DNA of 64,000 nucleotides from Raillietiella orientalis (Eukaryota), in the NCBI GenBank assembly GCA_036172245.1, contig JAYWIR010000008.1, positions 1,116,001-1,180,000 of the forward strand, given 5' to 3'. The position numbers and the translations under genes are program-made. Within the stretch, counting starts at the first letter, position 1. Every line of letters begins with the position of its first letter. The notes below the pieces were generated by a model, which was not told the DNA's origin, did not search any database, and worked only from the letters and a program-made list of their open reading frames with translations. This document shows positions 2,693 to 63,800 of this stretch, piece after piece.

Positions 2693-5600
2693 AAGGCCCC
2701 CCGGTCGTATGGGGCATTGTCGGAGACAACGTCACTCTGCCTTGCACCGTCCTGCCGTCTGTGGAGGAACTGAAGGTCCTCATGGTCTTCAAGGACGACT
2801 CGACGTCCCCCGTGTACACGTGAGTGGGTCTTGCTTTTGTGGGAGGACGGGTGGGAACTTCCTCCCGGCTTCCCGGTGAATGGGGACTTTCGCTCCACCG
2901 CTGTCGCGTGTCCCGGGGAGAAGGGGAGCTTCCTATCGCCCCTCCGGGGAAGAAGGAGAAAATTCGGAGGGAAGGGGAAACCTTCCCGCCCTCCACTCAT
3001 TCTCTCCGAAATAGGGAAGGTCTCGAGGAATCCTGCCGCGGCGACCGACACTCGCGACGCTGCCGAGGGCTGGGAGGCCTCCGGGTGCGAGGGAGAGGGC
3101 TCATTCATCCCTCGAGCGTTTCGCCTTGGTGTTCGGGAAGGGAATCCGCAGAGCTCCCTGAGCTTGGTCATCCGCACCCCTGATGCACCTGGGAGACAGA
3201 CGCCTCAATGCAAGCGCCAACAACCATTCGGGGGGCCACCGAACTGGGTGGTGGGTAACGCTTGGTCTTCAGGGAGGAGACATCCGTCTCTGTTCCCCTG
3301 TCCCCTTCCCCAGCTGCACCTCCTTGAGAACAAAGGAGGCCCATTACACCCTGACTCTATATGAGGGTGGCGCCGTCGTTGGCGTGAGACCCCACGCAAC
3401 AACGCCTGACGCAAACCTTGGTATCCATGTCCCACGACCCTGGCAACGGTTCTCTTTTGCGAAGTGCTAGTGAAAGCTCAGAGGGCCGGCGATCTTCTGA
3501 GAAGAGCACACCTTTGGACTTCCTGGATATCCCTCCTCTACACCCCCTCTGTGCTACCTCCCGCCCCCATTATTCCCCAGCCATCCATTTCCTGAGCAAC
3601 GGTACAGAGAGAGCGGCAACACTCTTGGCTGTGATTGGGAATGGAGACGGAGCTGAGCATGGCCACGTGGTGGGAAACCCTACGTGAGGAATGCTCCCTT
3701 CTTATCCGTCGGATCCCTCCAAGGAAACGTAGGGATCTCGGATGAGATTCAAGAAACGTGGTGGTAACCTTCCCTAGGGAAACCGACAGGCTGCTAGCCC
3801 TCCGCGACGTCCATCCATCGTTCGGGGCAGTGCATCCTTGCAGCCGAGGTGCCTTCCCGTCTCGTCCCTTGGCCCACTTGCCGTTGGTGAAGGCTCCGCG
3901 TGAGGGAAGGGAGGGAAAGGTGCCAGAATGCCGATGCAGCGCCGACACAGGAAGTTCAGCCGGAGCCCTCTCCGCCTTTCCCTCCCAAATCCCATTTTTC
4001 CCTTCCCAAATGAGAACTCGACTGACACAGTTGATGGCTTTGTCCATCCCAGTCCCGTTCGTTGCTCAGAACATAGGGCACTGGGCTCGTGAGGGCCGAC
4101 AGCTCTAGAAACGCTTGTCAGGGGTTGAGCGCCCACTTCGCCGTATCCCCTGCTGCCTAGGGTGTGTGGGGGCCGGCGCCCACGGCCCTATGTCATCTCT
4201 TCAAGAAACGTTTCCTCGGGCGTAGGCAGCAAGCGAGGCGGGAGCCAACCGACTAGTCAGGGAGTCCTGATCTCCCTCGTTCTCCCATCACCAGCACCCG
4301 CAGTACTCTTTTCCTTCCATCCCACCTCTTGGACCGTCTTCCGTCGCCAACAGTCTCAGTCCGCACCGCCGGCTATGAACGAGAGCTTGCCTTGGGCAGA
4401 GGTGACCCTGGCCGCGGGATGGTAGCCGAAGAACGAGCCTCTTTCCCTCTGTAGCTTGCGCTTCGCGCATCCTGGAGCAGCTGTCCCTTTCTCTCATCCG
4501 GGTAAGGCGGGCGTCTTCTGAGAGAGCTCGCCTCCGGCAGGTTTTCTCCATTACCTCACTGCCCCCAAGTTTGATGAGGAAAGCTCAGTTCCAGAGAGCT
4601 GTCAAGGGTTTCCCTTACAAAGCCGCCATCCGATCTCCTATTTATCCCTTGCTTCCATCTCCGCTTTCTTCTCTCCGTAAGATCACGTCGTCTCACGGTT
4701 AAAAAAGGATGTCGTGCAATCTGCAGCTGGACCGCGAGGTCAGTGGCCTCTTAGGATGCTGGAGTAGGGGGCACGCGCTTGCCAGGAGGCTTAGCAAGGG
4801 AGGTGACTGAGTACGGTGGTGACATCAATGCTCCCCACCGTTACCTCCATAGTCATCACTCTCATCGTGAATTCCACAGCCACACCGCCATCAATAAGGT
4901 CACGGGATGTCCATTAAAGGAAAGTGACACGCTGCAGGTCGGGTTGATTGTGAAGGGATGTTTGAGGGTGTGGAGAGTGGAGAGAGATGATGTTTTGGCT
5001 ACAAGATCCGAAGCCAATGGCGCCAGACACGGCGTTCTGTTAGGAAGTGAAGAAGCACGAGACGGGCGAAATAAACAGTGTTTTTTTTTTTGTTCTTGTT
5101 TTTTTTTTAGGGTGGGGGGGAGGAGGGAGAGGGTCTAGCGATTGGGAGCGCGTACAAAAATTGCATTCTGCTACGCAGCGTTCTCTGCATCCGTTGCCGA
5201 AGGAAAGCCATAGTCCCTGATCGGAGTCTAAACTTCCAGCATGGACAAGAGGCTGAGAGAAGACGAAACCGTGGATCTCCCTCACAACAAGGACCACATT
5301 TTGTACGACTTCAGCAGCAATGCACTGAAAATCTCCGGCCTCTTGAAATCGGACACCGGGAGATACCGATGCAGGATGGACTACATCATGCGTCCGACCA
5401 GGAACTTGGAGTTCCAGTTGCTGGTGAAAGGTGAGTGTGATGGCTTTCTTTTTTTTCTTTCGAGAAACGACAGAGAGCTTCGGGGCATGTTGGGAGAGCA
5501 TCAACAGATTCATCGTCTGCAGAACTGCTTCAAAATTCCCGAATCACCAAAGAGAGAAAGCCTGTTTTCCGCATCTCCAAAGAGAACGTTCTGTTCCTCC

Positions 5601-8600
5601 ACCGGAAAGTTGGAACAGAGCTTCCTAGGTTTCGAAAGGTGGAATGGACTCGATCACTTGCAAGGCAACGGTGGCAGTGATGCTGCATGAGTCTCTGTTG
5701 CTGATTCCGCCTGAAAATTCACAACTCTGGAGGGTCCAACTACAGGGACAGAGTTAGTGCGGACTGGATAAAGCCGGAGGCCCCCGATGAAGGCCGGAAC
5801 AATGGGAAATTGATCTTCGGGTCTTCCCAGGAGTAAAGGAGTGGGGAGTTCCCCCTCCGGTCGTACAACGGAGAGCAGACCCCCCTCACCGGGGGACCCC
5901 TACGGTTTCAAAGTGGAGCAGGAGCCCTCACAGGCACCTCTCCAGTTGTTCGGAGGAGCGGACCCCCCCTATTGTGGGGGGACCCTCCGAGTTGTCGCCT
6001 CTTCACAGAGTGCAAGGAAGAAAGCGAGAGCGATTCCCTGCGGGAAGCTACAGTGCCCCTTCTGAGTTTCGGAAGCGTCCCTTCCGGGGTTCTCTTCAGA
6101 GGCGTGAATAGGAGCGGTTCCCTTGCGGTCCCTCCGGAGAAGAAATTCTTACTAGCGGATCCTTTCCGGTTCCCTTCAGAGAAGTTGAAATGGAGAGGAC
6201 AGCCCCTCCCCATCAGAGGGGGGTGTCCCTCCGGAGAGAATGAGGAAGGAGATTTCCTTCGGGTTTCCCCTTCGGCGACAACCAGGGTGGGAGGTGCGAG
6301 AGAGCGTGAGAGGAACGGACTCCGAGCCCTTCCTGGATTCATAGGGCGGACCTCCATCCAGGGGTGCCCCCTATCCTGAAGAATTGTACTGAAGAATTAC
6401 ACGCCCCCCTGCGGGTTGCCGCGGGCGGAGGGGCGTGGAAACAAACCAGTGTGTTTAGTGTTCAAAAAGAGCCACGTGCGCCGCGAGGCACGCGACCGGC
6501 TCTGAGGTACTTAGTGCGGACTGAGACCTGGTTCCTTTCCTTGCTGCCCCGTGGCTAAAAGCACGCGATCAGCCCGTCGACTGCGGTCGCACCGAATTTC
6601 GTTTCCGAAATCGTCCCAATTTTAGCATATGTACCGCCGAAGCAGGTACATATCGTTCCAAGGGAGAGGTGCGGGCGCGGCTGGTGGGACTATTTTCACG
6701 GAAGACCTCGACCCTATTGCAGTCGTCATCGGGGAATCTCTTTATGGGAGACGGCGCGAGAAACGGAAACGACCGGGAGAAACAGAGTCTCGCGTGGAAG
6801 CTGGGCTCTGTTTCAGGATGAGGAATTTGAACACGGCATGGGTGATTGCCTTGACAGTGCAACACGAAGTGTAATGATAGCGCCATACCGAAATTTAATT
6901 TCCATATTGGTGTTCCATACTTGCTACTATCTGTTGCGTGAGCAGGTGCTCCTTTCCTTTTTAATGATACACGAGCTAATGAAACGCACTGATGGACTTC
7001 TTGGCAGGATGGTGATTCATTCGCAGGACGCGGATTACCATTAGATCTCGAAGAGAAAGAATCAGATATGAGCTATGGCCACGCTGAGGGCATAGAGCAT
7101 ATACCGAAATGCATATCGTGATCATTACGCAGCTCCGTGTGAGAAGGACGCAACAGAAGAAAAATCTTCGCCGTTCGGAGCCGGGATGACTTTGGTTCCT
7201 TAATTTGGACTCACTGACGCATTAATCAAAGCTCCCGTTTTCTCGCCCTTCAATTCATTAATAACGAATGGAAATCGTGGAGTGGAAGTGCGTACAGAAC
7301 GTGTCCCTCGCCGAGATCCTCAGCGCAAACAGCTCATCGGTGTTAATTATAGTCAGCAGCAGCAGCAGAGGAAGCCCTTCGTAAAGGAATATTCGATAAT
7401 CGTGGGCAAGTGGGTGTGTTCGCCCCTACGGTTGTCAGCAGCAGCGCAGAACCCGCGACCCTCGGACGGGCACGGTTGCTGCCCTCTGCTGGAGGCGCGG
7501 AAAAGGGCCGGAGTCCCCATTCCGAGACGGCGCCCTCCGGCGCGGGACGTCCCCCCGGGAGGATTTTTTTTCTTTCTTCGCTTTCTTCAGATCGCCGCAG
7601 GAGTGCGGCGAGTGAGGTGGAAGATAGGTGCAAACACCAAAAAAAAAAAAAAAAAAAGAACGTCCCCGAAATCCTGGATGACAGGTTCGATCGATTAATT
7701 TGCAGGCTGCTTCTTCGGAATCGGATTCTCCAAAGTTTTCTTATCACTGGAATTCTTGTGGACGGATGAGCGAAGGAGCGAAATCATCAGACTGGAAACA
7801 AACCGTCGAATTGGAAAAGAACGTAAATCACACTTTGAATTGGGAGGAGATGAGGTGCATCGAGGAGAGGCATGGAAATTCTTTTCCCCGTGACTTCTGA
7901 AATGAACAGCTCTGTAAGCAAATCGCAACACCTTCAGCGGGATCGCACTGCTTTCCCTCCTATCTGGGAAATTCATTACATCCCGTCTGAGAACAGGATG
8001 CTAAGTACGTATGAATAATGCATTTCCGGATCGCGGCAAGCAGAAAAAGAGAAAGAAAAGAGAAAAAAAAAAAAAGGAGGGAAATAAGGGGAGACGAATG
8101 GGGGAGGAGGAGAAAAATGTGGAAGGGATGATCGGAGTGTCGACAGCGACTCCGTTTCGACATCCGCCACCAAATAGTGATAGCTGCGAACGACCCCGGG
8201 AAGTTGAAACCATTCGCAACTGCTGGGAGGAACTTGGATTGGAGACGTACTTTGCTTTGGCGGGCCAACTTTGGGAACCTCCCATCACGGGGAAAAGTCT
8301 CTTCGATTTTTGTTCCCTCGCTATGGTTTCCTGTTCGATTCGGAAACACCCGAGGCGTGCTCTGGAGGAGGAAATGGATAAGAACGATGTGCCGACTGAG
8401 CGAGCATCGCCTGCAAGTTTTGACGTCGCTTCTGCTTCATCGGAGGCCATCGGCTCAACGGGAGTTGCGCTCCTTCACACCCCTCTGCTCTTGAATTTTC
8501 CGGTACCGAAGGGAAGCCGGCATCTGCGAATGAGCTGGGCGAGCCCCCTTCAAACAGCCGGAAGCAGGATGGAAGGACTCTCGTTTCGCGACGGCACCCC

Positions 8601-11600
8601 CTCTTCAAAGAGAAAGCTCGGTCAGGATGAGAGCGCAGTTAGAAGAGCGCATCTCGCAGCTTCAGGAACGGAGAGGCGTCGTCATCGCAACGATGCAAGC
8701 AAGCGCGTAGGGAGGGTCCGGAAGGGAGTTCGTAAAAGGGCAAGCAGAGGGTGGATTGCCTCTCTGTCGAGTGGAGGAGCGTTGCTGGAGGAAGAGCTCA
8801 GAATTCATTGAAAGCGTCTCCGGACAAGGCTTGCTGAGGAGATGGGCAGAGGAGAGATGGAGGAGACGAATCGACTGCAGCTTCAGACTGTGAGCCCAGT
8901 GCTCGAGATCGAATCCGAACGCCTGAGTGAACGGAGCTGGTTTCCTCATTTGACGCAGCATCTGGGGCTGGGAAGTCCAAGCGCGTCGCGCTCCACGGCT
9001 CCTCATCCCGCGTACCCTGGCAACGCAGTCGATTGCCTTCCTTCCTTGTATCGGCCGGCCTTCTTCCCTGATGTCACCTGAGGCTCTCTTACTGGTCAGC
9101 GTTGATCATTCGATGATGTTTGTAGTTCCTGCTGGGAAACCAAAGATCTTGAATTCCTACCTTGCCGAGGACGGATCCCGGATAATAGGCCCCTTCAACG
9201 AAGGCTCGGCTGTGGAGATCACTTGTGAATCTGTCGGAGGTGCGATGATCCGCCCCCGCCAAGCGGTGAACTCATCGAAAATCAGTTTCCAGGATTCCCA
9301 GTGCCGAAATTATCCTGGTACGCTGATGACTTTCTCGTCGATGTGTTCTCGGAGTATCAACGCGAAGACACAGTTCGCAACTCTCTGTTCTTCAGCCGCC
9401 TCCTGAGAACTCAGTTCCGGTCCGTGCTGACGTGCCACGTGTTCAACCACGTCGGGGAGGATTCTAACGTCAGTTGCACCATGGACATGAACCGTAAGTG
9501 CTCCCCCGTTAAGTAGTTGGCTCTCGGCGCCTCGTCTCTTTCCCCGTGCGTGAGGGGAAGTGGGCCCCCATCTTGGCACCACACGCCCAATAAAGTGAAT
9601 CCTGCAATTCTGAACAAGCGTGGAGAAACGGACGTAAATCATCAGCAGATGCGCATGTGGGAGTTGTAGGGCTGGCATGCTTCCTGCAAGAGATCTCATC
9701 GAAATGCGAGGAGACTCATTCATTTCTCTATCGATCATTCCTATTTGATTACAATTACTGCATGAACTTAATTATTCGACTGCTCCTCTTCCCCTGGGAT
9801 CCCCTGTTTGCTCTTCAGGAGCCAGCTATCGATTTTTTCCCTTTCGAACCCCAGTTAAACGTTTTGTTTCTTTCCTCGTTGGTCTCTTTGCTTTTGTACG
9901 GTGGGTCGCCATTGTTTACACCAATTTACGCCAATGCTCCCTTAGTTGTGCATCCATTGGTTCCATTTTCCCGCAGTCTGCGGCTCTTCCTGTTGGTTTC
10001 CTCCTCGAACACAAGAGTGGTGTCCACTGGAACAGTCCACACGCGTGAACTGGCCCGACGGAAAGTTTCGCGGGTTAAGAGCTCATTTTGCGCGACCAGT
10101 GTTCTGCCGTGCTTTTCCATGGCTCCCCCCCCCCCCCAGGCATTCCCGCCCGGGACGTGGGTTTCTTTATCCGTTGGCCCCTCTTTCCGAAGTGGCTCGC
10201 GCCCCGATTCCGAAACGACCCTCCGAGAGGCAAGACGGGTGGATCCGACTGGTGCATTCCGGGCGATGTGCTGGCGCAGGTGAACCCGCCATGTCCTTCT
10301 ATCCCACCTCGTTCCAGCCAGCATCCCGGGACCCCCGGCGTCGCCCGTTCTGCGCTCCCCCAGGGTGCAAAACACTCCGCGTGTTTCGCCCGCAACGAGT
10401 CCCGCTAGCGAGTGAGTGGCATGCAGTCTGCTGCTTCCCGGTGCACTTACCAGTGGGGCGTAAGAACGGCAAACGGGATGCGTTCCCCTGGAGATGAATA
10501 GCTCCCGATTTTCGTGTCGGAAGCACTCACCGCGCTACACTCACTCGACTTCTGAGTGCAAAAAACGTGCGGCTCTGAACTTAACGCTCCCAACCGACAG
10601 CGAAATTTCAATTTCTCCCGGCCCATACAAATTCACGTGAGTAATGTGTCTTCAGTCCCTGAAATTGAATGCAATGATTAATGCTGCTGACATTGGAATG
10701 GAAAGCGGATTCTCCGACCAGGATACAGTTTTATGGCGCCATATCCAATACGTTCAAGTTGGTTAGATAATGTACACTGTACAGCATCACGCGCTATCGC
10801 GGATTATTGCAATGTAGAAGGTACCACAGATGCGCGCGCGCACAAAAAAACTATACGCAGGCACGCAAAGTTTTACGACCACCTTTTTTCCACTTGTGGA
10901 TCCATTGCACTTTAGTTCGAGAAATCGCTTCGCATTTCCTTGCTCATGACAGCTGGCAATCCTCGTTTGGCTCAACCGGGAAGATTTCCCAGCATACGCA
11001 CTCCTCCCGCAATGCCACCTACCTTAATAAGGAAATCCAAAGGTGACCACAGCATCACGGATGCGCTGTTGCAATTGATGCGATAGGTGTGCACATGTGA
11101 CACATATGTATCTGATCACACATAGTCATGTGCATCCTATAGGTGTCCATGATTAAATACACGTATGGATATTAACTAACGTGTGTATGCGTTTATAGAT
11201 ACTATGAGAGCGTGAGCAAACACACTAAATCGTGTTTATCGGTGGAAGTGGATCGCCTCAAGACACTCCGTGTTGCAGTCGCAAAAGTGGTCTCCGTGTG
11301 CCCCACTGCACCCAATCGGTCAAATGTGCACTGTGCTGTTCAGCTCGCAACTTCTCGCAGGCGTGAAGTCACCAGATCTGATCGCACGCGGCAGAGCATT
11401 TGTTGCATTGCATCCCTAGTTGCTGCTTATCACTTTCTCGGAGCCAGCTCCCAACACTTCACCCTACAAATCTCCTCCCGATAAGCACCAGGAGTTCTCC
11501 GTTCCACAGAATGCCATCAGGTTGCTGACAGCATTCTTTCTCCGCAAATGAATCTTCACTCTTTTTCTTTCTTTGCCTTGGATGGAGTAACCATCCACTG

Positions 11601-14600
11601 GATTTCCCCAGTCTTCACGATCCCGAGCACTTTTAATCTTTCTCTTTCTCCAAAGTTAAACCTCTGGACATCCACTTGATCGGCAACGACGGAGCTATCC
11701 AGTCCGGGAAGAACCACACCGTGTCCTGCTATGTCTACGGGTCTCGGCCACCTGCTCGCATCTCGTGGTACAAAGGTTACAAGCAAATATCGGAAGACAA
11801 GTACGTAGTCAAGGTAAATAACCTAGTTGCAGTTCCGGCATGCCACGTTCCCGGTGACTGCTCCTCATCCCGTCCCTCCCGTGAGACCTCCCACGTCCTA
11901 CCCGTAAAACGTTCTGGATTTGTAAACTTGCTTCGAAGACAACCAACGAGAGGAAAATTTTGCCCGCCGGATAATGAGACGGGGCTTCCCAGATCAGCAG
12001 GACAAGAAGGTCGTGATATAGAAGGGGAGTTGCTATGGAAATCAGGTGCAGCTGCTCCTCACCCGCCTCAAGCCGTCGCTACACAAAAAGACGTTCGTAT
12101 GCCAGGGCGCACGCAGCAGGCACTCACACGCCGCATACGAACACTTCCTTCCGCCTTGAGGAAGGGGATCAGCGACTTCGATGCAGCCCACGCCCCTGCC
12201 TTGCAATGGTCTGCTGCTTTCCACCTCCAGGAGGAGAAGGAGCAGTCGGCACGACACGGAATTTCCCTTTTCCTCCCTTCTAAAGTCGCGGTTTGCTGCT
12301 TTTTATCACCCTCCTTCATTCGAATTCCTTGCAGGATTCGAACGCTCGCCTTGTTCACGTGCCTACCCGATCTCTTGCTTCTCCTCTGGGGACATCGCTA
12401 GATTCCACTCACGGGCAGCTGTCTTCCCTTCCAACGGGTTAAGGTCTCTCCGACGCTCCGTGGGGCAGCTGCCAGATTTCTGAAGTCTCTACTGCCACTC
12501 CGCCGCCGACGCTTCCGCGTGCTCGGGAAAGCCGCCATTAGCACAGGATAGTAGGTCGTCCGCAAGCAGACACTGGACCACGGAACCTCTCGGATGACGC
12601 CGGTTCCCCAAAGCTGCTGCTACCTGTCTGAAAAACCCAAGGTTTACAGCAGGCTTCTTCCCGGACCGACTCCACTGGTCGTCTTCCTCCCGAGGCCGAG
12701 CAGGCTCTTGGAGCTGGAGAGATCGTTGGGGGACATCCGCGCCAAATCTTACGCATCTTCGGCTGGCTAGAAATAAGCTCCCGCCACTTCCACGCAAGGA
12801 GGAGAATTCGGAGGATGAGATGGGGGAGACCGGGAATAAAGGAATGTGCTGCCATCGCCGGGTTGCTCCGGAAAGCAGCAGGAGACAATCCGGTAGCGAA
12901 GACGTTCCTTCGCTTCCCGCAGTCTCTTCTCCCGCAGACCACGAAACCTCAGTCATTCCTGGTACTGATCACAGGGTTCTTCTGGAACGGTGATCCTGGA
13001 CCCTCTCATTCCACGGGAAGACTTTGTAAAAGGAGAGAATGGATCTCGTCCTATCCTCCTCACTCGACATAGGAACAAGGGAAGGAAACTTTCTCCTCTC
13101 TCCGAAAAGACCTGTGAAAAGAACTGACTCGTGCAAGGTCCTCTTCCTCGCCTGGAGCAACAATCTTTCTCTGTCCTGCGTCTGCGTGCGAGAACGTCCC
13201 TGCTGTTCCGTTCCCCTCTCTACTTCCGTCCGGGAAGGAACTCTGGCACGGCGACGAAGTGGGGAGCCGGCCCGGCGCGAGCGGCACTCTCCTGGCCTGT
13301 TTCCGTGGAACGAGATAAACCCTCCGCGGGATTGTGCTCCTCCAGACGGGGTGGCATGTGAAGAGACTGCCTTGCACTGTACCCCCTTAGCTCTCGAAAA
13401 TTTTCTCCAAGAGCGCGTCCCGGACCCTCAGCATGAGGCGTCCACCCACCCCTTTCGCCTCTTGGAATTTAACCCTGCCAACAGTTTTCAGACGAAGTCA
13501 CTTCGAGCTCCCTCTTCCTGACGGTGACCACCGAAGACAACAACAAGGTCATTGCGTGCGCCGCTCGAAACCCTCTGTTCGAAGAGAATACCTTGCGGAA
13601 TGAGTGGAAGCTGAGTATTCTGTGTAAGTTCTTTTGTATTTGCTCGGTGTGGGCGCAGTTTCTCCGAACGTGACTGAGGAGCGGCATCGCCCATGGTGCA
13701 CGATCTCGTGTCGGACGGAGCTTGAGGAATGCGAGGGAGCGAATCGGAGGATCGCAGCTGCACCCGCGTGGGCACACGAGACGTTCTTAAGTGCTCGTCT
13801 ACGGGATCATATCTGGGGAAAATTCCCAAGATTCCCTTGATTCCCAAGAAGCCGTCGTCACGGTTTCGCAAGCGCCTCCTCCGCTTGCTTCGTATAATTA
13901 AGCCGACCATTTCTCGTGAAACCTCGCTTCCCACTGATGAGGCTGCAAAGAATCCACAATCTCGGAAAAGTCTTTAAAGCCTCGAGTCCGTGCCTGATCC
14001 TCTCTTATAGAAGCAATTTTTTTTTTTTTCCTTGCAAATCCCGAGGGCACTTGATCTCCGAAATTGCAAAGCTACTCCACTTTTCCTTTTCCCGAAATCA
14101 TAACGTTTTCGGCTGTAATCCCCCTTGAAAAATGGTAAGGTACGTGACAGTACACACTTGATTACATAATTGCAAGGCTAAGAAACGGCTTACAGTAACT
14201 GAGCTTCTTTTTCACACTTCCTGGCTGAAAACTTGCATCAGAACAAAGCATTAAGGCTAATGGAATGACACTGGCTGTTATGGAGCACAATAGCGATCGA
14301 TGGAATTCCCAACAATCACAGGTAGAACGGTCCTTTGAAGGAGGATGCTGCGGATGGAACGCGGAACACCGCTCTGCCTTGCGCGGCTCCGGAAACCGGC
14401 AGCAGCGGTGGGCCGTTAATGATGCAAAATGGCGTCCTGTCCCGATACAGTCCGCGGAGCGAATTTATTCCGAAAACCAATTTGAGGGGTCCAGAATCTC
14501 GACGAGGAGCTAAACAAACCTCCACGACAAGCACTGTCAATAAGCGTTGGCTGGACAGAAGAACATGATTGCATTCAAGGAGCCATAAACAGTGAGGCAC

Positions 14601-33200: not shown

Positions 33201-34826
33201 CCGTCTCCAAAGTTTCGCCTCTCCCCTTCCTCCCCTCCGCGAAACCGCTCCCGCTCCGGAGGTGGATCAAACTTTCCAAGTTTCAGCGGCGGCCTGGGGT
33301 TCCAAACTTCCGCTTCCGTTGTACCACCGGGTACTTCCAACCTTCAGCACTCCAGGTCCCTGAAGCGGGAAACGGGGAGGCGTAAGGGTCACGGCCGAAA
33401 CTCATACACCCTTCTCCTTCTCGGACCGCTGACCGACCTGCCGCCCCCATCCCATAGACGCTCGACGGTGACCGGAAGCGGGGTGTCCAGCGGTGAACTG
33501 GATGTCGGGAAACTTAGAGCTCCAAAGGCAAAGACGGTCCGTGCTCGAAGCTGCCACGGCAGGGCCGGCACGATCCAGAAGAGTCCGCTCGAACACGTCC
33601 CGCCATTTCGGGAGGCTGCGTGGCAGGGTCGTGCGTCGAGCGCGGATGCTGCTTCCCGACGTCCACTGCGTCGAACGTGGCCGGGTGAATTCCAAGAAAA
33701 CTGCGAAGATCGAGAAGCGGAGCGGGGGATTGAAGAAAGAAAAGATCCTTCCACGGTCCGTCGTCAGGGACCGGACTTGAATGATAGAGGAGTTTCTTTT
33801 TCCTTAATGCACGCACGAAGGGACCACGCCTCAGAACCGGACGCTGGATGCTCCCAAGCAGACTCCCTCGTGCAAGTCGTCGGGCGGAAAAACTCCACCC
33901 GGAAACAAAACCAACTCATGAGGGGGCCATCCCTCACCGCTGCGACGCGGTGCACCTCCACGCTCCGATGCGTATTTGAATTCCATCAAGGAAGAGTGCA
34001 CTGTCAACGCGAAATGCAGAAAGTGTCCCGTCAAAAGGTCACTCGGGAAACTCAACTTTCCGTCGTGAATAAGCGTGCGCATCCTGAAATGCACACAGCT
34101 TGAGTTGGCGGACGTGAGGCATACCCGTTCGAACCCAGCGTGACCTAGGACGACTTGGCAAGCTTGCAAGCTGCACACTTCAAATGAGCCCGTAGAACAA
34201 CGCGCGGTCTTTTCAAAGGCCTTCCACTTGCACTTCACCAAACTTGAGCTGACACAAGGCAACAGGTAGCAATTACTGGCTTGGACTTTTGCACCCATCG
34301 CCGCGATTTCATGGCGAGCAATGTGATTTCCCACTTGCAAGGTCGCTACTGTCATCAGCAAGCATCCACACACCTTGTGGTGACGAAAACTTTGCCCGAT
34401 GGCTGATGACCTGTGATGGAACAAAATTTCTTTCGGGTGCACAATGGAACAGCTGCTTACTAGCTTTGCCTATTCCAAACTGCTATGCTTCGATGCCTGC
34501 CTGCATGATATCCCACACACGAGCTTGTAGGGGTGGGGGGAGAAAAAGGGGGGAAAGGAAATGAAAAATCTTCCTTTAAGAAAACTCCAGCACCAAAATT
34601 TATTGTTGAATTCCTAAGGCGAAAAAAATCACAAGCAAACATGACTCGTATATTATGACATTCACAAGGCCACTATGCACTGGCTGATCTCATCAGTACT
34701 GTTCACAGCAATGTGGTTCCTGGATTTCAAATGACAACTCCGAATGCATGTTCTCCATGGAAGCACTCAATTGGATAAATTCTGCGAGATCCACAATCTT
34801 TCCACAGTCGGTACATGCTAAAGGCT

Positions 34827-37800
34827 TCAGGAAACATGTGTTGAATCAACATCTGCTAAGCTCTCCTGGCTGCTCAAGGTAAGGATCGTCTGCCTGCTGA
34901 GCAGCTGGATTGTGACCTGACTCATGAAACCAGGGATGGAATGACGCAGTCCAATGTACAGCTCGAATTCATCAGGGAAATGCGTGGTGAAGTTCGTTTC
35001 CAGCATCTGTAACTCGTCGTTGGGAAGGAGCTGCAATGAATGTGAGCTCAGAACTCTATGCAGTGTGATCACCTCAAACAAGAAGTAGTCTTCTGGAGAC
35101 TCAGCATACATGGATGCCACCTTGTAAGTGTGGTCGACCTTATCTACACGATACCCAGTAAGCAAATACACAAGGAGCCGCCATTCCTTTCCAATTTTCT
35201 CGAAGGAGTCCAGCATCAACTGATTTCTCTTTTTCAGGGATGCATTACGCTGTTTCAATTCTACAAAGGAGCAACAACATATCGAGAAATTGAATCCCTT
35301 TCAAGCACAAACCTTCCAGCTGTTCAGATGTGCTCTCATTAACTTTCTGACCAACCAGCAGAGTTAAATTGTCCATGTGGCCTTTCTCCATCAGACGAAT
35401 ACGATCTCTCAAGGCCTGGTTTTCCTTCTGCAATGACTGCATTTCCTTGTGTTGTGCCTGCAGTGCTAAAGAAAATGGATTTTTCCTGCAAGAAATAACT
35501 GAGCAGCCTTTCATGGATGAACCTACTTCCAGTGGAATGTATAAACGGTTTTTTTTCCGAGCTGCACGCCAGATGGGATGGAAGCACTTTGCTCTTGTAC
35601 ACATTCCTCACATAAGAATTACATAACATTCGATTCTTCCCTCTCATCACTTACTTGCTCTGCTTTGATTAGGACTAGTAGTTGCTCCTGGAATTTGTCC
35701 AATTTCTGCAGCAAAGCCTGATCTTCAGCATTGAAATTGACAGTCATCTGATTTTCGTACCTCTGTACCAAATCCCGGTAGATGTCTCTTTCCTACCAAT
35801 GTATCATGCATCACTAGCTATCCTTACGCTTCCCTCACCATCTCTAAACGAAGCATTTTATTGTTATTTTTTCTATCACATCTAGACTGCTGTTGCAGGA
35901 GCGAATCTTTCTGCTGCAGCTCAGCTTGCTGCACCTCTAGCATCTGCTTCATTGAGCGCTCAGTCTTTTCTGCCCGCTCCAATCTACAGACTCAACATGT
36001 GTTCCTCAATCACTCAACACAACTCTTACTTCTCATGCAGACTCAAGTTGGCTTCCCTCGTCAGCAGTTGTTCCCGCTGCAAATTGCCAACATACTGCAT
36101 GACAACAAGATGACTGGGGACTTTCTCATCCTCCTGCCAATTGGCAGCCATTTGTCTCCAAGTGTGCAATTCTTCCAAGAGAGAGAGCCTTTCTCGATCA
36201 ATGCGTTCTCGATCTTGGCAGCGCTCATTAGCACGCTGAAGCTGACCTTCAAGATTACCCACCTGCTCTTTCAGTAGCAAAACCTGATCATACATTCGTC
36301 TACAAAGGGACACAACAAATGGATGAACGAACAACGAATATGTCTTCCCAATACCTAAAGCTGTTATTCTGCCTCCTCAACTCTACTACCTCTTTTTGTA
36401 GCTGGGGCAATTCAATGATGCTTGTTTGCATCAAACGACTGAAGGCAGCTGCTTCCTTATCTTTTGAGAGTTCTTGCTCCAATTTCTTCACATAACTATT
36501 TATCAACTAATTGCATGGTTGAAATACCTGAATTTTCTGTTTTGCTTCCTGTAATTCCAAAGCAGCTGCTTTGCTGTTCTTCACTTCAACTAATAACCAT
36601 TCTGTTTTTTGCTTCTGCAGCTCCAGACTCTTTTCTGCAGCCAAGAGTTTACTTTCTGCCTGACTGACATCATCTTTCAACTGCAAGATTTCCAATCCAG
36701 ATGAGTACCTCAATTCACTCAGCTGCTGCCTGACCTATCAATCAATCATCTCCCAGTTAACACATCATCTTATTCCTCATTGCAAATACAGAACTTTTTG
36801 CAATTCCTCCTCTGTTTTGTGCCTACTGTCATATGCATCCCGTTGTTGCATTTGAAAACGTTTCACTGCTTCTGATGATTCATCCCTCAACTTGGCAAAT
36901 TCAGCAGCCATCACTTCATGCTCAACTTGTAGTTTCTTGAAATTTAGTTCTAGCTTAGATAACTAACTGAATTTAAAACTGTTAATGGGAATTTAAAATC
37001 ACTTTTTCTGTAAGATGTGTTTTCTCCATCTTCAGCTGCTCTTGTTTTGCATCATGTGTTGCCTTCATTTGTCTTTTTTCCCTGTCCATCCTCGCAAGCT
37101 GAGAGTTGAGCTCAACAATGGTAGATTTTGATGATTCTAGTTCTATTTGTATTTCATTAAGTTCAAAGGAACCTGGTGGGAATACAAATCAGTAATGTAG
37201 TTACCCAAAATGATATTACACAGCATTCACAGAATTCTCAGTAGGATTGCGAAAATAACCAGGATATCTTACAATTAATGGACTAATAATGGTCATTATT
37301 GTACAGTGTTGTATGCATGATGATTGTATGTATAATGCAGATTTGTGTAATCCATTTCAACAAATTGGATTCTGAGACTGCAAGTAGCTTTAGGTGGTGA
37401 AATCTGTTTGCAAAAAGTCTTGAAGTAAATCAAATTGCACAGTTTTACTACTAAAAAAGTGGATATCACGCCCATGGATGTCAGTACCTGTTCAGAGTTT
37501 GGAGCCCACAGGCATTTGAAATTGCAATGCAATATCAGCGACGCCGATAATAGTTTTAAAGGCAAACCCTCAATTAACATAAAATCGGAAATGTCAAAAT
37601 CTCACACTGCAACAACAAAACATGAATATGTCATGGAAATGAATGTAAGTCCACAAATAGGTACTTGAAGAAATTTGATTTCCGACAATTATGATTAAAT
37701 TTGAACTTTTAATGTATAAATGTGATCATTGAATTGGGTTATTTGTACTGGTGCACAGCGAAGAATCCATGAACGAATTTATAGGGGGCTTTTAACGTCT

Positions 37801-38088
37801 ACAAGCCTCAGATACGTGAAAACTATACCCCAAACTTCCGGAACACTAAATGTATTTCACACATTCGGACTCGCAAGTTTTAAGGCAATTTGCATCATTA
37901 CGATCACACGGAAAAGTTCTATAAGTATAGTTACGATTTCTGTTGACTTCAGTTTCCTGTAATTCAAATTTTCTTTTTTTTGCTGTAGGTGCAAAGAGCT
38001 CCGTAAGCATGGTTGTAAACACCATTGGTTTTTCGTCACAACCTTCACTCGACAAGTACGAATCTCTCCGTGTATCGTTAATTTCCAT
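34827..38088 (-). CDS. MAD1: Mitotic spindle assembly checkpoint protein MAD1 (~670 aa)
   Basis: Exons (minus): 38088-37935 (gccATGg start, tentative), 37172-37003, 36962-36795, 36734-36528, 36485-36355, 36299-36030, 35983-35839, 35792-35655, an ambiguous junction within 35654-35523, 35522-35313, 35260-35073, 35030-34827. Long coiled coil with ERDIYRDLVQRYENQMT (cf. ERDGMRAILGSYD) and an RWD tail YLLTGYRVD...YKVASMYAESPEDYFLF...LQMLET...SIPGFMSQVTIQL typical of MAD1. Confidence 0.92.
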
Positions 38089-60848: not shown

Positions 60849-63800
60849 TCATTCCTTCGCATCGACGATGCCTCCGGCGCCTATGGCAAAAGTCGCTTCG
60901 CTTTCTGGTAAATCGGGACTAAAACGGGAACGGTGTCGGCGCCCTGGTACCTGCTGCTTACCTGTCGTATATCTTGGCGATCCTGATCTCCCCCCTTCCT
61001 TTCCTCAGAGCTATTCTTGTCGTGGAGGCGTGAGCCAACACGTGACCGCCGACAGGCTTCTTCGGGTCAGCCTGAAAGGGGCCTCGCCGTCAGTGCGTCG
61101 GAGCGACAAGCAAGTCAAGGGAGCTGCCCGAGCGAAGCCCGTCTTGAAGCGTTATTCTGGGTTCCATGCCCGCCTCGTGATTCCGTGCAAGAACTACCAG
61201 CTGGCTTGCAACTGATTCGCGTGAGAGGAAAGAAGAAGGGGAGGGGGGGGGGGGGAAAAAAAAAACGCAAGCGTAAACGCAGGGGCGGAAGAGTGCGTAG
61301 GCGGGAACGGGATCGGAGCAGAACGAAGCATCCACTATCGCACGACTGGCACCGCAAGTTCGTATAGGGACCTGAAAAGTCAAGGACGCTCCCGGGTCCG
61401 CTGTCATTTGATTCGTAATAAAGACAGCAACGTTGAATTCCTCGGATATTTTTTGCAAGCGCGAGAGCATCTGAGCTAATTTCTGCTGACGATCTGCCAA
61501 TTCGCCACGGCCACTGAAGTCCACTCGGAAGAGTGCCATGACAGAATCGATTATCTGAAACAGCAGGTGGGGGATCAATGGCTCTCTGAGGCTTCCGGAA
61601 CCCTCGGACACTTAGGCGCGTGATGCTTACCAGGACTTTGAAGATTCCTCCTTCCTCGTGAAATTTAGCGGCTACGTAATCCAAAAGCTCGTACTGATGC
61701 TCGCTGGTGTACGCTCTTGCATACAGTATGTTCTCCAATACCGCCTCTTGATCCAAATTGAAACGATCGGCGATCAATCTTAATCTGTCTGGACGACTAC
61801 CTCATTAAGATTACGGGACAAAACAAAAAAAAAAAAACACTTTCTGGCTTCTTCGATGGGAAAGGCCGGGTCAGACCACTGCTGCGACCAACGGCAGGTA
61901 CGCCTCCAAAGTCACCCGAAGCGGAGAGCATTTTACGCGAGGTTTGCGCATTCAAAGAAAAAGCAACGCACTGCACCTCTCCTCTGGGACTCTGCGAACA
62001 GAAAATTACAGACTTCTGCATAATGAATCATTCTCTGGAAACGCCATCCGAGTTCGTGATGGTCGAAAACACGCCCAAATGCACTTCCCGTGGAATCGAA
62101 AGTGCATCTGTGCATGGCGACCCACCTCGGGTAAGGCGCCCGTGCACCACGGAAGCTGCGCTTCTATACGATTTCCAGTGCACTCGGGGGTCCCGAGACT
62201 TGGATGCAGCAACTGATTAGGCGGATGAGTTTCGGTTGAGAGCAGACGCACAACCGCCAGGAAGAGGACACGGAAGACAATTCCGTGTTTTCGAATTCGG
62301 AAATGAAAAATAATCGCGGTACTTTTTTGATCGGCAGCGATCGGAACTCTCGGAACCATTTGACTGTGTTGTGCACACGAGGAAGATGCTTTATCGGTTG
62401 CAGCTGCTTATTAGGAACACTCACGCGCGCTTTCACCGATTCTTACGGCTGCCGAGGTCGTCGCCTTTCGCAAAACTGATGACAGATTAAACAAACGGGA
62501 ATGAGGTTTGGTGTTTGCCTTTCTTCGGCAATTTCGAACCTCATTCGTGCCAAATATGAGCGTCGGCGTTAGAACAAACGAGCAAAACTCTTTCAGTCAC
62601 ATGCTACAAGTACATTAAATACACCAGCACTCGTACCAGCAAAAGCAACAGGAGAACATCTCGCATACTCGAAGTCATCGCGCTTAAATGACCGCTATTT
62701 ACTTCAAGTGTTGGCAGAATTTTACGAAGCGAGGCTTCAAATGACGTAGACGTTGGAATCAATTTACGATGGGGACTTTTGGAAACTTTGTTCAAACCTT
62801 CAAAGGTTCGAAACTCCAGATTTTATCATTTGCTTTTGGAAAACATTTCCGGCGCAGCTGGCCGAAAGTTTGTTCCGGTGAAGCATCAAAACCGAACAGG
62901 TGGGATACCGAGTCGGGACGGAGTCGGCCTGCATTTGGCAGCCACCACGGGCGAAACATAAAGGATACAACGTATTTTCTGTATCGATGAAAATGACTTT
63001 TCCACCGCTGTATCCATTATCCCCAGGCAACTGAGCCGTGACGCAAATCGTATGAGATAGCTGCGTTTTTCCAGTACGAAATTCACCAAACACTTCCGTG
63101 ATGGACATGCTTTCTATTCCTCCGCCTAACAGTTTGCTACGGAAAAAGAAGAGTTACTGAAAACACAGAGTATTCGCCTTTGGTGATTCAAGTTCAAATT
63201 CAATAAATATACAGACATATAATTAAATAAACACATGTGCAAGATCCCATTTCATGATGCCTACGAAATCAAAATTTCCAATTTTTCGCATTGCTGTTTT
63301 TTTACCATTCATAAATCATGATCAGATGCCTGGGAGCAGAAAGCATAAGATGATTTTCCCAGTTATTGTGAACGACTAATAGCCCCAAGCATCCCGCGGA
63401 CACGCGTGCAGTAATTACTTCCAGTGACACGGAATTCTGACGCTCACTCAGCGAATCGCCATTTCCCAGACGAGCTCGGAACACACAACAGCATCAGAAT
63501 TGCAATCACTTTTTACGTATTCAATAGATTTATTCAGGGTGCTTTTCTTGATGCGATTTCAAGAGTCACAATCAATAGTTTACGTGTCGCAGTTATGTGC
63601 ATGACCAGGAATTCCGGTTGATAATAAGGTAAAATGCCGCTCCAATGGTAACCCTGTTTCCTCACAAGCTCGTAGTTCACTTCCGTGGTTTTCATCTTTC
63701 CCTAAGTACAATGTCACAGGGCTGTGTCTTTCTGAATAGTGTAGTGAACAGTGTGGTATAAAAGTCTACTTTAAAGCACAGATTCATAGCACCAATGTGG

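Follow-up and report, generated by a model that had tools for sequence, protein, structure and literature searches.

The MAD1 gene of the pentastomid Raillietiella orientalis lacks the RLK motif: the three residues corresponding to human R617-L618-K619 read LML (35211–35219, − strand) in an otherwise intact gene. All positions without a contig or locus label refer to the window, a 64,000-nucleotide stretch of contig JAYWIR010000008.1 (positions 1,116,001–1,180,000 of the forward strand; assembly GCA_036172245.1). The three best named matches of the mitochondrial COX1 in this genome, at 72–73%, are to Armillifer and Linguatula, and so point to a pentastomid, a parasitic crustacean. Considered together with BUB1 and the remaining checkpoint genes in the same genome, the explanation that we favour—with slightly better than even confidence—is that the contact between RLK and the phosphorylated CD1 motif of Bub1 has eroded on both sides, that Mad1 is recruited otherwise, probably via RZZ, and that the checkpoint has been rewired rather than lost.

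MAD1 occupies 34827..38088 (− strand). The gene model, built from sequence alone, consists of 12 coding exons and ~675 amino acids: exon 1 (38088–37935, attached by an in-frame join), exon 2 (37172–37003), exon 3 (36962–36795), exon 4 (36734–36528), exon 5 (36485–36355), exon 6 (36299–36030), exon 7 (35983–35839), exon 8 (35792–35655), exon 9 (35606–35527), exon 10 (35485–35313), exon 11 (35260–35073) and exon 12 (35030–34827). Exons 2–12 are separated by ten GT-AG introns of 40–60 nt and give an open spliced frame of 623 aa; two of the acceptors, at 36486 and 35607, are weak. Introns of 40–60 nt, often with weak pyrimidine tracts, are found in the housekeeping genes examined. The gene lies in an AT-rich island: GC content is 0.30–0.45 between positions 34000 and 41000, and 0.55–0.70 in the rest of the window. 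The identity of the gene is indicated by (i) a profile match to PF05557 (E 1.3e-23), (ii) the best Foldseek matches of its C-terminal part, which are 4DZO and 7B1F (E ~1e-7), and (iii) the MAD1 family architecture, in which a C-terminal RWD domain comes after a long coiled coil, as predicted from the sequence and structural model.

The segment that contains the substitution (35237–35199, − strand) translates as LKKRNQLMLDSFE, with LML encoded by TTG ATG CTG at 35219–35211. It aligns without gaps to the C-terminal chains of human MAD1 (PDB 7B1F and 4DZO; E 5e-14). This alignment and the open, multi-exon frame bear out the initial annotation, which had read LML as a substitution for RLK, with ungapped flanks, inside an intact gene. 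Relative to human MAD1, the changes are R617→L, L618→M, K619→L and F629→W; S610, N615, Q616, F622, R630 and the YxLTGY motif are retained.

One conceivable explanation is that LML is an assembly error, or that an RLK-bearing MAD1 is hidden elsewhere in the genome; we consider either highly improbable. Converting R-L-K to the LML codons takes several base changes and zero indels, making a simple sequencing slip unlikely, and a near-identical triplet (LMM) is present in one other homologue, P0067. Four genome searches, using the PF05557 profile, lobster MAD1, an RLK-bearing MAD1 and DNA as queries, all returned a single locus and no second MAD1 copy; the sole additional match to the RLK-bearing query (E 0.83) contains two stops. 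The paralogue that the initial annotation had named as a possible complication was thus not found in these searches. In favour of a hidden copy, such searches may overlook divergent genes: the HORMA family profile (PF02301) matched HORMAD and overlooked both of the MAD2 genes described below. Apparently, then, MAD1 at 34827..38088 is an intact, single-copy gene.

Human R617 reads phospho-T461 of Bub1, and the R617A mutation lowers the affinity of MAD1 for CD1 by ~1,000-fold (PMC8391104). Given the size of this effect, canonical phospho-CD1 reading by a MAD1 that carries LML is unlikely. The pentastomid protein has two further features of note. Firstly, a KKR basic patch lies at positions 612–614 (35226..35234, − strand), directly upstream of the lost motif; across the homologue columns, a basic residue at position 614 is the common state, and the E612→K change is unusual (of 141 homologues, 80% have E at position 612 and 4% have K). 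Secondly, the other CD1-contact site reads W629-R630 (35178..35183, − strand), so that one of the two human residues with published CD1-contact roles, F629 and R630 (PMC8391104), has changed and the other is retained.

Other functional parts of MAD1 are preserved. The Mad2-interaction motif (MIM; 35476..35546, − strand), which is interrupted by an intron at 35526–35486, precedes the last coiled coil, as expected of the MAD1 family; its H, N and P are retained, its usual K-V-L start is replaced, and it matches at all three columns for which conservation across 46 full-length homologues is 70% or higher. The RWD head domain and C-terminal tail (34827..35170, − strand, with a 42-nt in-frame intron at 35072–35031) are predicted by AlphaFold2 with a mean pLDDT of 87.5, and the RWD domain retains 24 of 32 columns conserved among the 46 full-length homologues. 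The equivalent of human T716, an Mps1 site that binds Cdc20 (PMC7614552), is also a threonine (34887..34889, − strand), as it is in 40 of the 46. The tail that follows (34827–34886, − strand) is 18 residues longer than in human MAD1—which has only two residues there—and is Ser-rich and acidic. The CD1 site, by comparison with the RWD domain, matches at 3 of its 8 conserved columns, a count that no other of the 47 rows undercuts; the difference between the two regions falls short of significance (Fisher p = 0.086), and the CD1 site was picked after the change had been noticed.

How variable is RLK? The initial annotation implied that the motif is conserved and its loss rare, a view that is not upheld by a survey of the best 150 matches among 50%-identity representatives, 141 of which cover the triplet after eight gapped rows and one misaligned row were dropped. 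These are the matches closest to the query rather than a species census. RLK is exact in only 54 of the 141. At position 617, 110 homologues have R and 13 have K, while 18 carry some other residue, such that R617 is absent in 31/141; position 619 is K in 69, and 8 homologues have a basic residue at neither position. Among the homologues without R617 are one spider, one beetle and members of a mite and a dipteran clade. Variability of the motif across arthropods, which the initial annotation had named as grounds for refutation, is thus largely borne out. In a quick tree of 128 rows (RLK motif masked, short rows excluded), a 16-row clade with SH-aLRT 98, in which the only two named rows are from mites, Medioppia (KII) and Dinothrombium (HIM), has R at position 617 in one row, K in eight and other residues in seven. 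A 7-row clade with SH-aLRT 99 has R617 in none of its rows; the two rows with a name come from Lutzomyia (HLK) and from Anopheles (triplet uncertain, owing to a nearby deletion). The spider Stegodyphus mimosarum has FIL, the beetle Agrilus QLK and the oyster Crassostrea gigas RLL. These data suggest that the loss of R617 is recurrent, having occurred several times in arthropods. The pentastomid MAD1 shares with its dipteran, mite and spider counterparts the loss of R617 from an otherwise normal C-terminal domain. It differs in having no basic residue at 617 or 619, whereas the dipteran rows keep K619 and many of the mite rows have K617. It also differs in belonging to a crustacean lineage, the decapod and krill relatives of which (krill, lobster and prawn) retain R617, as RLM or RLL.

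The exceptions to RLK named in PMC8391104 are C. elegans and X. laevis, and reviews likewise describe RLK as conserved except in these two species. A literature search, mostly of papers outside subscription, returned no report on arthropod RLK variation or on the pentastomid checkpoint; part of the variation described here may already be visible in the RLK alignment of PMC8391104 (Appendix Fig S2B) and in the MadBub sequence files that accompany PMC5204127.

The partner of the RLK motif, CD1, is carried by BUB1. The PF08311 profile matches three loci in the genome. The first, on contig G000:C64 (L009 921–4792, + strand), is BUB1: an open frame of ~1,090 aa with two TPR domains, GLEBS, a coiled coil, an STP motif and a kinase, the kinase exon having no second match in the genome. 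The two TPR domains are tandem and are accompanied by an N-terminal KEN-like motif, with a long coiled coil after GLEBS (L009 921–2081, + strand). No S/T-P-T occurs anywhere in the ~1,090-aa BUB1 model, and a search with a simple ABBA pattern found nothing after the CD1 position. Between GLEBS and the kinase, the best score for the CD1 motif is 5/11, a value that 1,074 of 2,000 shuffles also reach; there is no arthropod CD1 profile or positive control behind this score, because a homologue search with the BUB1 kinase exon came back blank. On these sequence grounds, BUB1 appears to be without a recognisable CD1.

A different possibility is that Mad1 still binds a diverged CD1, in one of two forms: either (i) the all-hydrophobic LML, together with W629, holds the CD1 helix without phosphate, or (ii) the new KKR patch binds the phosphate one turn upstream. 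The rarity of K612 and the retention of R630 fit such a contact, as does a CD1-like remnant that straddles a 40-nt intron of BUB1. The remnant sits after GLEBS and the coiled coil, as one of the three best windows, and keeps the T-x-E-x8-F spacing of human CD1, with Ser at the pT461 position. However, it scores at the shuffle level and carries Pro and Ala at the positions of human L468 and F470. In a complex prediction, the 40 BUB1 residues after the intron and a MAD1 C-terminal dimer scored 0.38, against 0.01 for the best control, which constitutes weak support. The runs share at least 75% of their contacts, and the partner pLDDT is 47–48. Of 78 solved complexes, 51 reached the mark used, as did 2 of 108 mismatched pairs; but only 5 of the 78 did so with scores of 0.60 or below, a range into which all 4 passing mismatches among 180 fall. 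The prediction covers only the residues after the intron, its calibration excludes peptides, and a similar complex (7B1F) has already been solved. Helix 1 of Cdc20, moreover, docks in the same Mad1 groove (PMC7614552). The score could therefore stem from a generic groove or from the predictor having already met the solved structure. Overall, we think a compensated contact of this kind unlikely. A second CD1 candidate, spotted by eye just upstream in BUB1, was rejected: it requires an insertion and lies outside the six best-scoring windows.

The second PF08311 locus, on contig G000:C16 (L007 8050–6577, − strand), is a MAD3 of ~330–350 aa with no GLEBS; its motifs are KEN1, TPR, a D-box, KEN2 and an ABBA-like sequence. 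The third (L008, − strand; contig G000:C20) looks like a broken MAD3 copy. MadBub is split here, with BUB1 as one product and a short MAD3 that lacks GLEBS as the other. This split is absent from the 16 duplications listed in PMC5204127, where Daphnia and Lepeophtheirus are each credited with one MadBub gene.

Has CD1 been lost wherever R617 has? Supplementary table II of PMC5204127 (Tromer 2016) scores the CMI motif, which is CD1; its columns were taken from the layout and checked against the human rows. CMI is scored 0 in Stegodyphus mimosarum, Anopheles gambiae, Drosophila, Lepeophtheirus and nematodes, and 1 in Crassostrea gigas, Daphnia, human BUB1 and X. tropicalis BUB. Triplet and CMI agree for the spider (FIL/0), the oyster (RLL/1) and human (RLK/1). 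Dipteran MAD1 proteins without R617 agree with the dipteran CMI score of 0, although the species differ; Diptera also resemble the pentastomid in their BUB/MAD split of MadBub. The disagreeing pair is X. laevis, without RLK, versus X. tropicalis, with a CMI of 1, from which it follows that co-loss of R617 and CD1 is not universal. Moreover, the C. elegans CM1 is scored 0, yet the checkpoint depends on it, even if Mad1 recruitment does not; an unrecognisable CD1 is therefore not the same as an absent one. Within these bounds, the few checkable arthropod cases suggest, at the level of motif comparisons, that R617 and the Bub1 CD1 tend to be lost together.

The remaining checkpoint machinery is largely present. 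A kinase gene on contig G000:C62 (L155, − strand), which we take to be MPS1 from its motifs, has these kinase motifs intact; its activation loop is altered (F for Y after GTVN), and its N-terminal region is apparently short in the stretch examined. Its presence rules out a C. elegans-like loss of MPS1, which had been considered. ROD, Zwilch and ZW10 each have profile matches above Pfam cut-offs in the genome, the last through ZW10_C (the Zw10_N profile found no match there); RZZ was one of the points that the initial annotation had suggested checking. CDC20 is present, with basic and MIM-like stretches that presumably correspond to Box1 and the MIM; their retention matches that of MAD1 T716, which binds Cdc20 in human. 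A p31comet candidate was found with E 0.015.

MAD2 at first seemed lost, PF02301 having matched only HORMAD; this was ruled out by a pattern and protein search, which recovered two MAD2 genes and one REV7-like gene. The MAD2 loci lie on contig G000:C20 (~579,700–580,950; L016, − strand) and contig G000:C17 (~1,664,950–1,665,620; L161, − strand). Both paralogues are intact and strongly diverged, and are 28% identical to each other. The main MAD2 is 31–44% identical to 19 other eukaryotic (metagenome) MAD2 proteins, the pairwise median of which is 54%, and it retains 36 of 53 near-invariant columns; the second is 27–34% identical to the same 19. Dimer-face changes are Q134R, F141I and R184Q in the main copy, and R133K, F141I and R184K in the second. 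Residues 133/134, 141 and 184 shape the Mad2 dimer face and matter for dimerisation (PMC2270309).

Such divergence might indicate a relaxed checkpoint, in which weakened selection on kinetochore-catalysed MCC assembly in this parasite has allowed MAD1, BUB1 and MAD2 to drift together, the genes persisting for timing or other roles. Consistent with this are the state of both MAD2 proteins, the missing ABBA-type match in BUB1, and the MAD1 branch, which is among the four longest of the 128 in the tree. A gene outside the checkpoint, DMC1 (60960–63150, − strand), is by contrast well conserved, with one exon identical to human at 46 of 57 residues. DMC1 is a weak control, being a slowly evolving protein everywhere. 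Arguing against relaxation, MAD1, BUB1 and MAD2 all retain open frames; the MIM core and T716 of MAD1, both KEN boxes of MAD3 and the MIM- and Box1-like stretches of CDC20 are kept; and a p31comet candidate exists. We thus hold a relaxed checkpoint to be doubtful. The initial annotation had offered either another recruitment route or a relaxed checkpoint: the first remains plausible given a BUB1 without recognisable CD1 and the matches to ROD, ZW10 and Zwilch, while the second is less likely in view of the retained MCC-building parts and of C. elegans, where the checkpoint works without RLK.

From the unlikelihood of canonical phospho-CD1 reading, the seeming loss of the BUB1 site and the retention of MCC parts, we infer a checkpoint that is rewired. 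MAD1 has lost the arginine needed to read phospho-T461 of Bub1 but keeps the Mad2-binding motif, the RWD fold, R630 and T716; in the rewired checkpoint, the phospho-CD1/RLK contact would have decayed on both sides, as it seemingly has in Diptera, the spider and mites. Mad1-Mad2 would then reach kinetochores via a different receptor, for which RZZ with the corona is the likeliest candidate and a second surface of Bub1, as in C. elegans, the alternative. The link from Mps1 through Mad1 pT716 to Cdc20, together with a separate MAD3 bearing KEN and ABBA motifs, could still build the MCC.

Set against the human and yeast module (7B1F; PMC8391104), the pentastomid system is alike in the family, fold, S610, R630, T716 and MIM core of MAD1, and in having both MPS1 and a BUB1 that carries GLEBS, an STP motif and a kinase. 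It differs in LML and W629, and in a BUB1 without S-P-T, a recognisable CD1, or an ABBA match after the CD1 position. With C. elegans (PMC3941058, PMC8406419) it shares the missing RLK, the division of MadBub between BUB1 and a short MAD3, a CD1 that motif searches do not recognise, and RZZ. In the worm, the checkpoint works without RLK, the MAD-1 coiled coil binds the kinase domain of BUB-1 (PMC3941058), and MPS1 has been lost (PMC8406419), with PLK-1 substituting; the presence of MPS1 sets R. orientalis apart. How RZZ recruits Mad1 is itself a named open question (PMC8406419).

A MAD1 without RLK is already known, and here there is one more instance; taken alone, the loss is modest news. More noteworthy are the pair of MAD2 genes, a MadBub split beyond those listed in PMC5204127, and the indication that arthropods have repeatedly lost R617 together with CD1. 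Such repeated loss would provide natural experiments for CD1-independent Mad1 recruitment. The pentastomid case stands out in that MPS1 is retained alongside parallel changes in BUB1, MAD3 and MAD2. A pentastomid is a poor laboratory organism; the same question would be easier to address in flies and mites. A bolder reading, which we judge quite improbable as a whole, is that pentastomids have rebuilt the entire catalytic scaffold. It would combine (i) a hydrophobic, phosphate-independent Mad1-Bub1 docking in place of RLK/pT461, (ii) Mps1 control exerted at Mad1 T716 alone, (iii) an independent MadBub duplication yielding the GLEBS-less MAD3 and double-TPR BUB1, (iv) two MAD2 proteins acting as an obligate heterodimer that splits the template and copy roles (Q134R/R184Q versus R133K/R184K, with F141I in both), and (v) repeated co-loss of R617 and CD1 across arthropods.

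Several observations were made on other genes. Meiotic genes are present, in the form of DMC1 and a HORMAD with a PHD-like finger on contig C6 (L011). Scattered exons at ~5040–12400 of the window (+ strand) encode immunoglobulin-like sequence, presumably belonging to a cell-adhesion gene of the sidestep/nephrin type. COX1 has 54 matches over many contigs, many of them fragmented, which suggests abundant nuclear copies of mitochondrial DNA; on contig C282, ~550 bases lie between COX1 and COX2.
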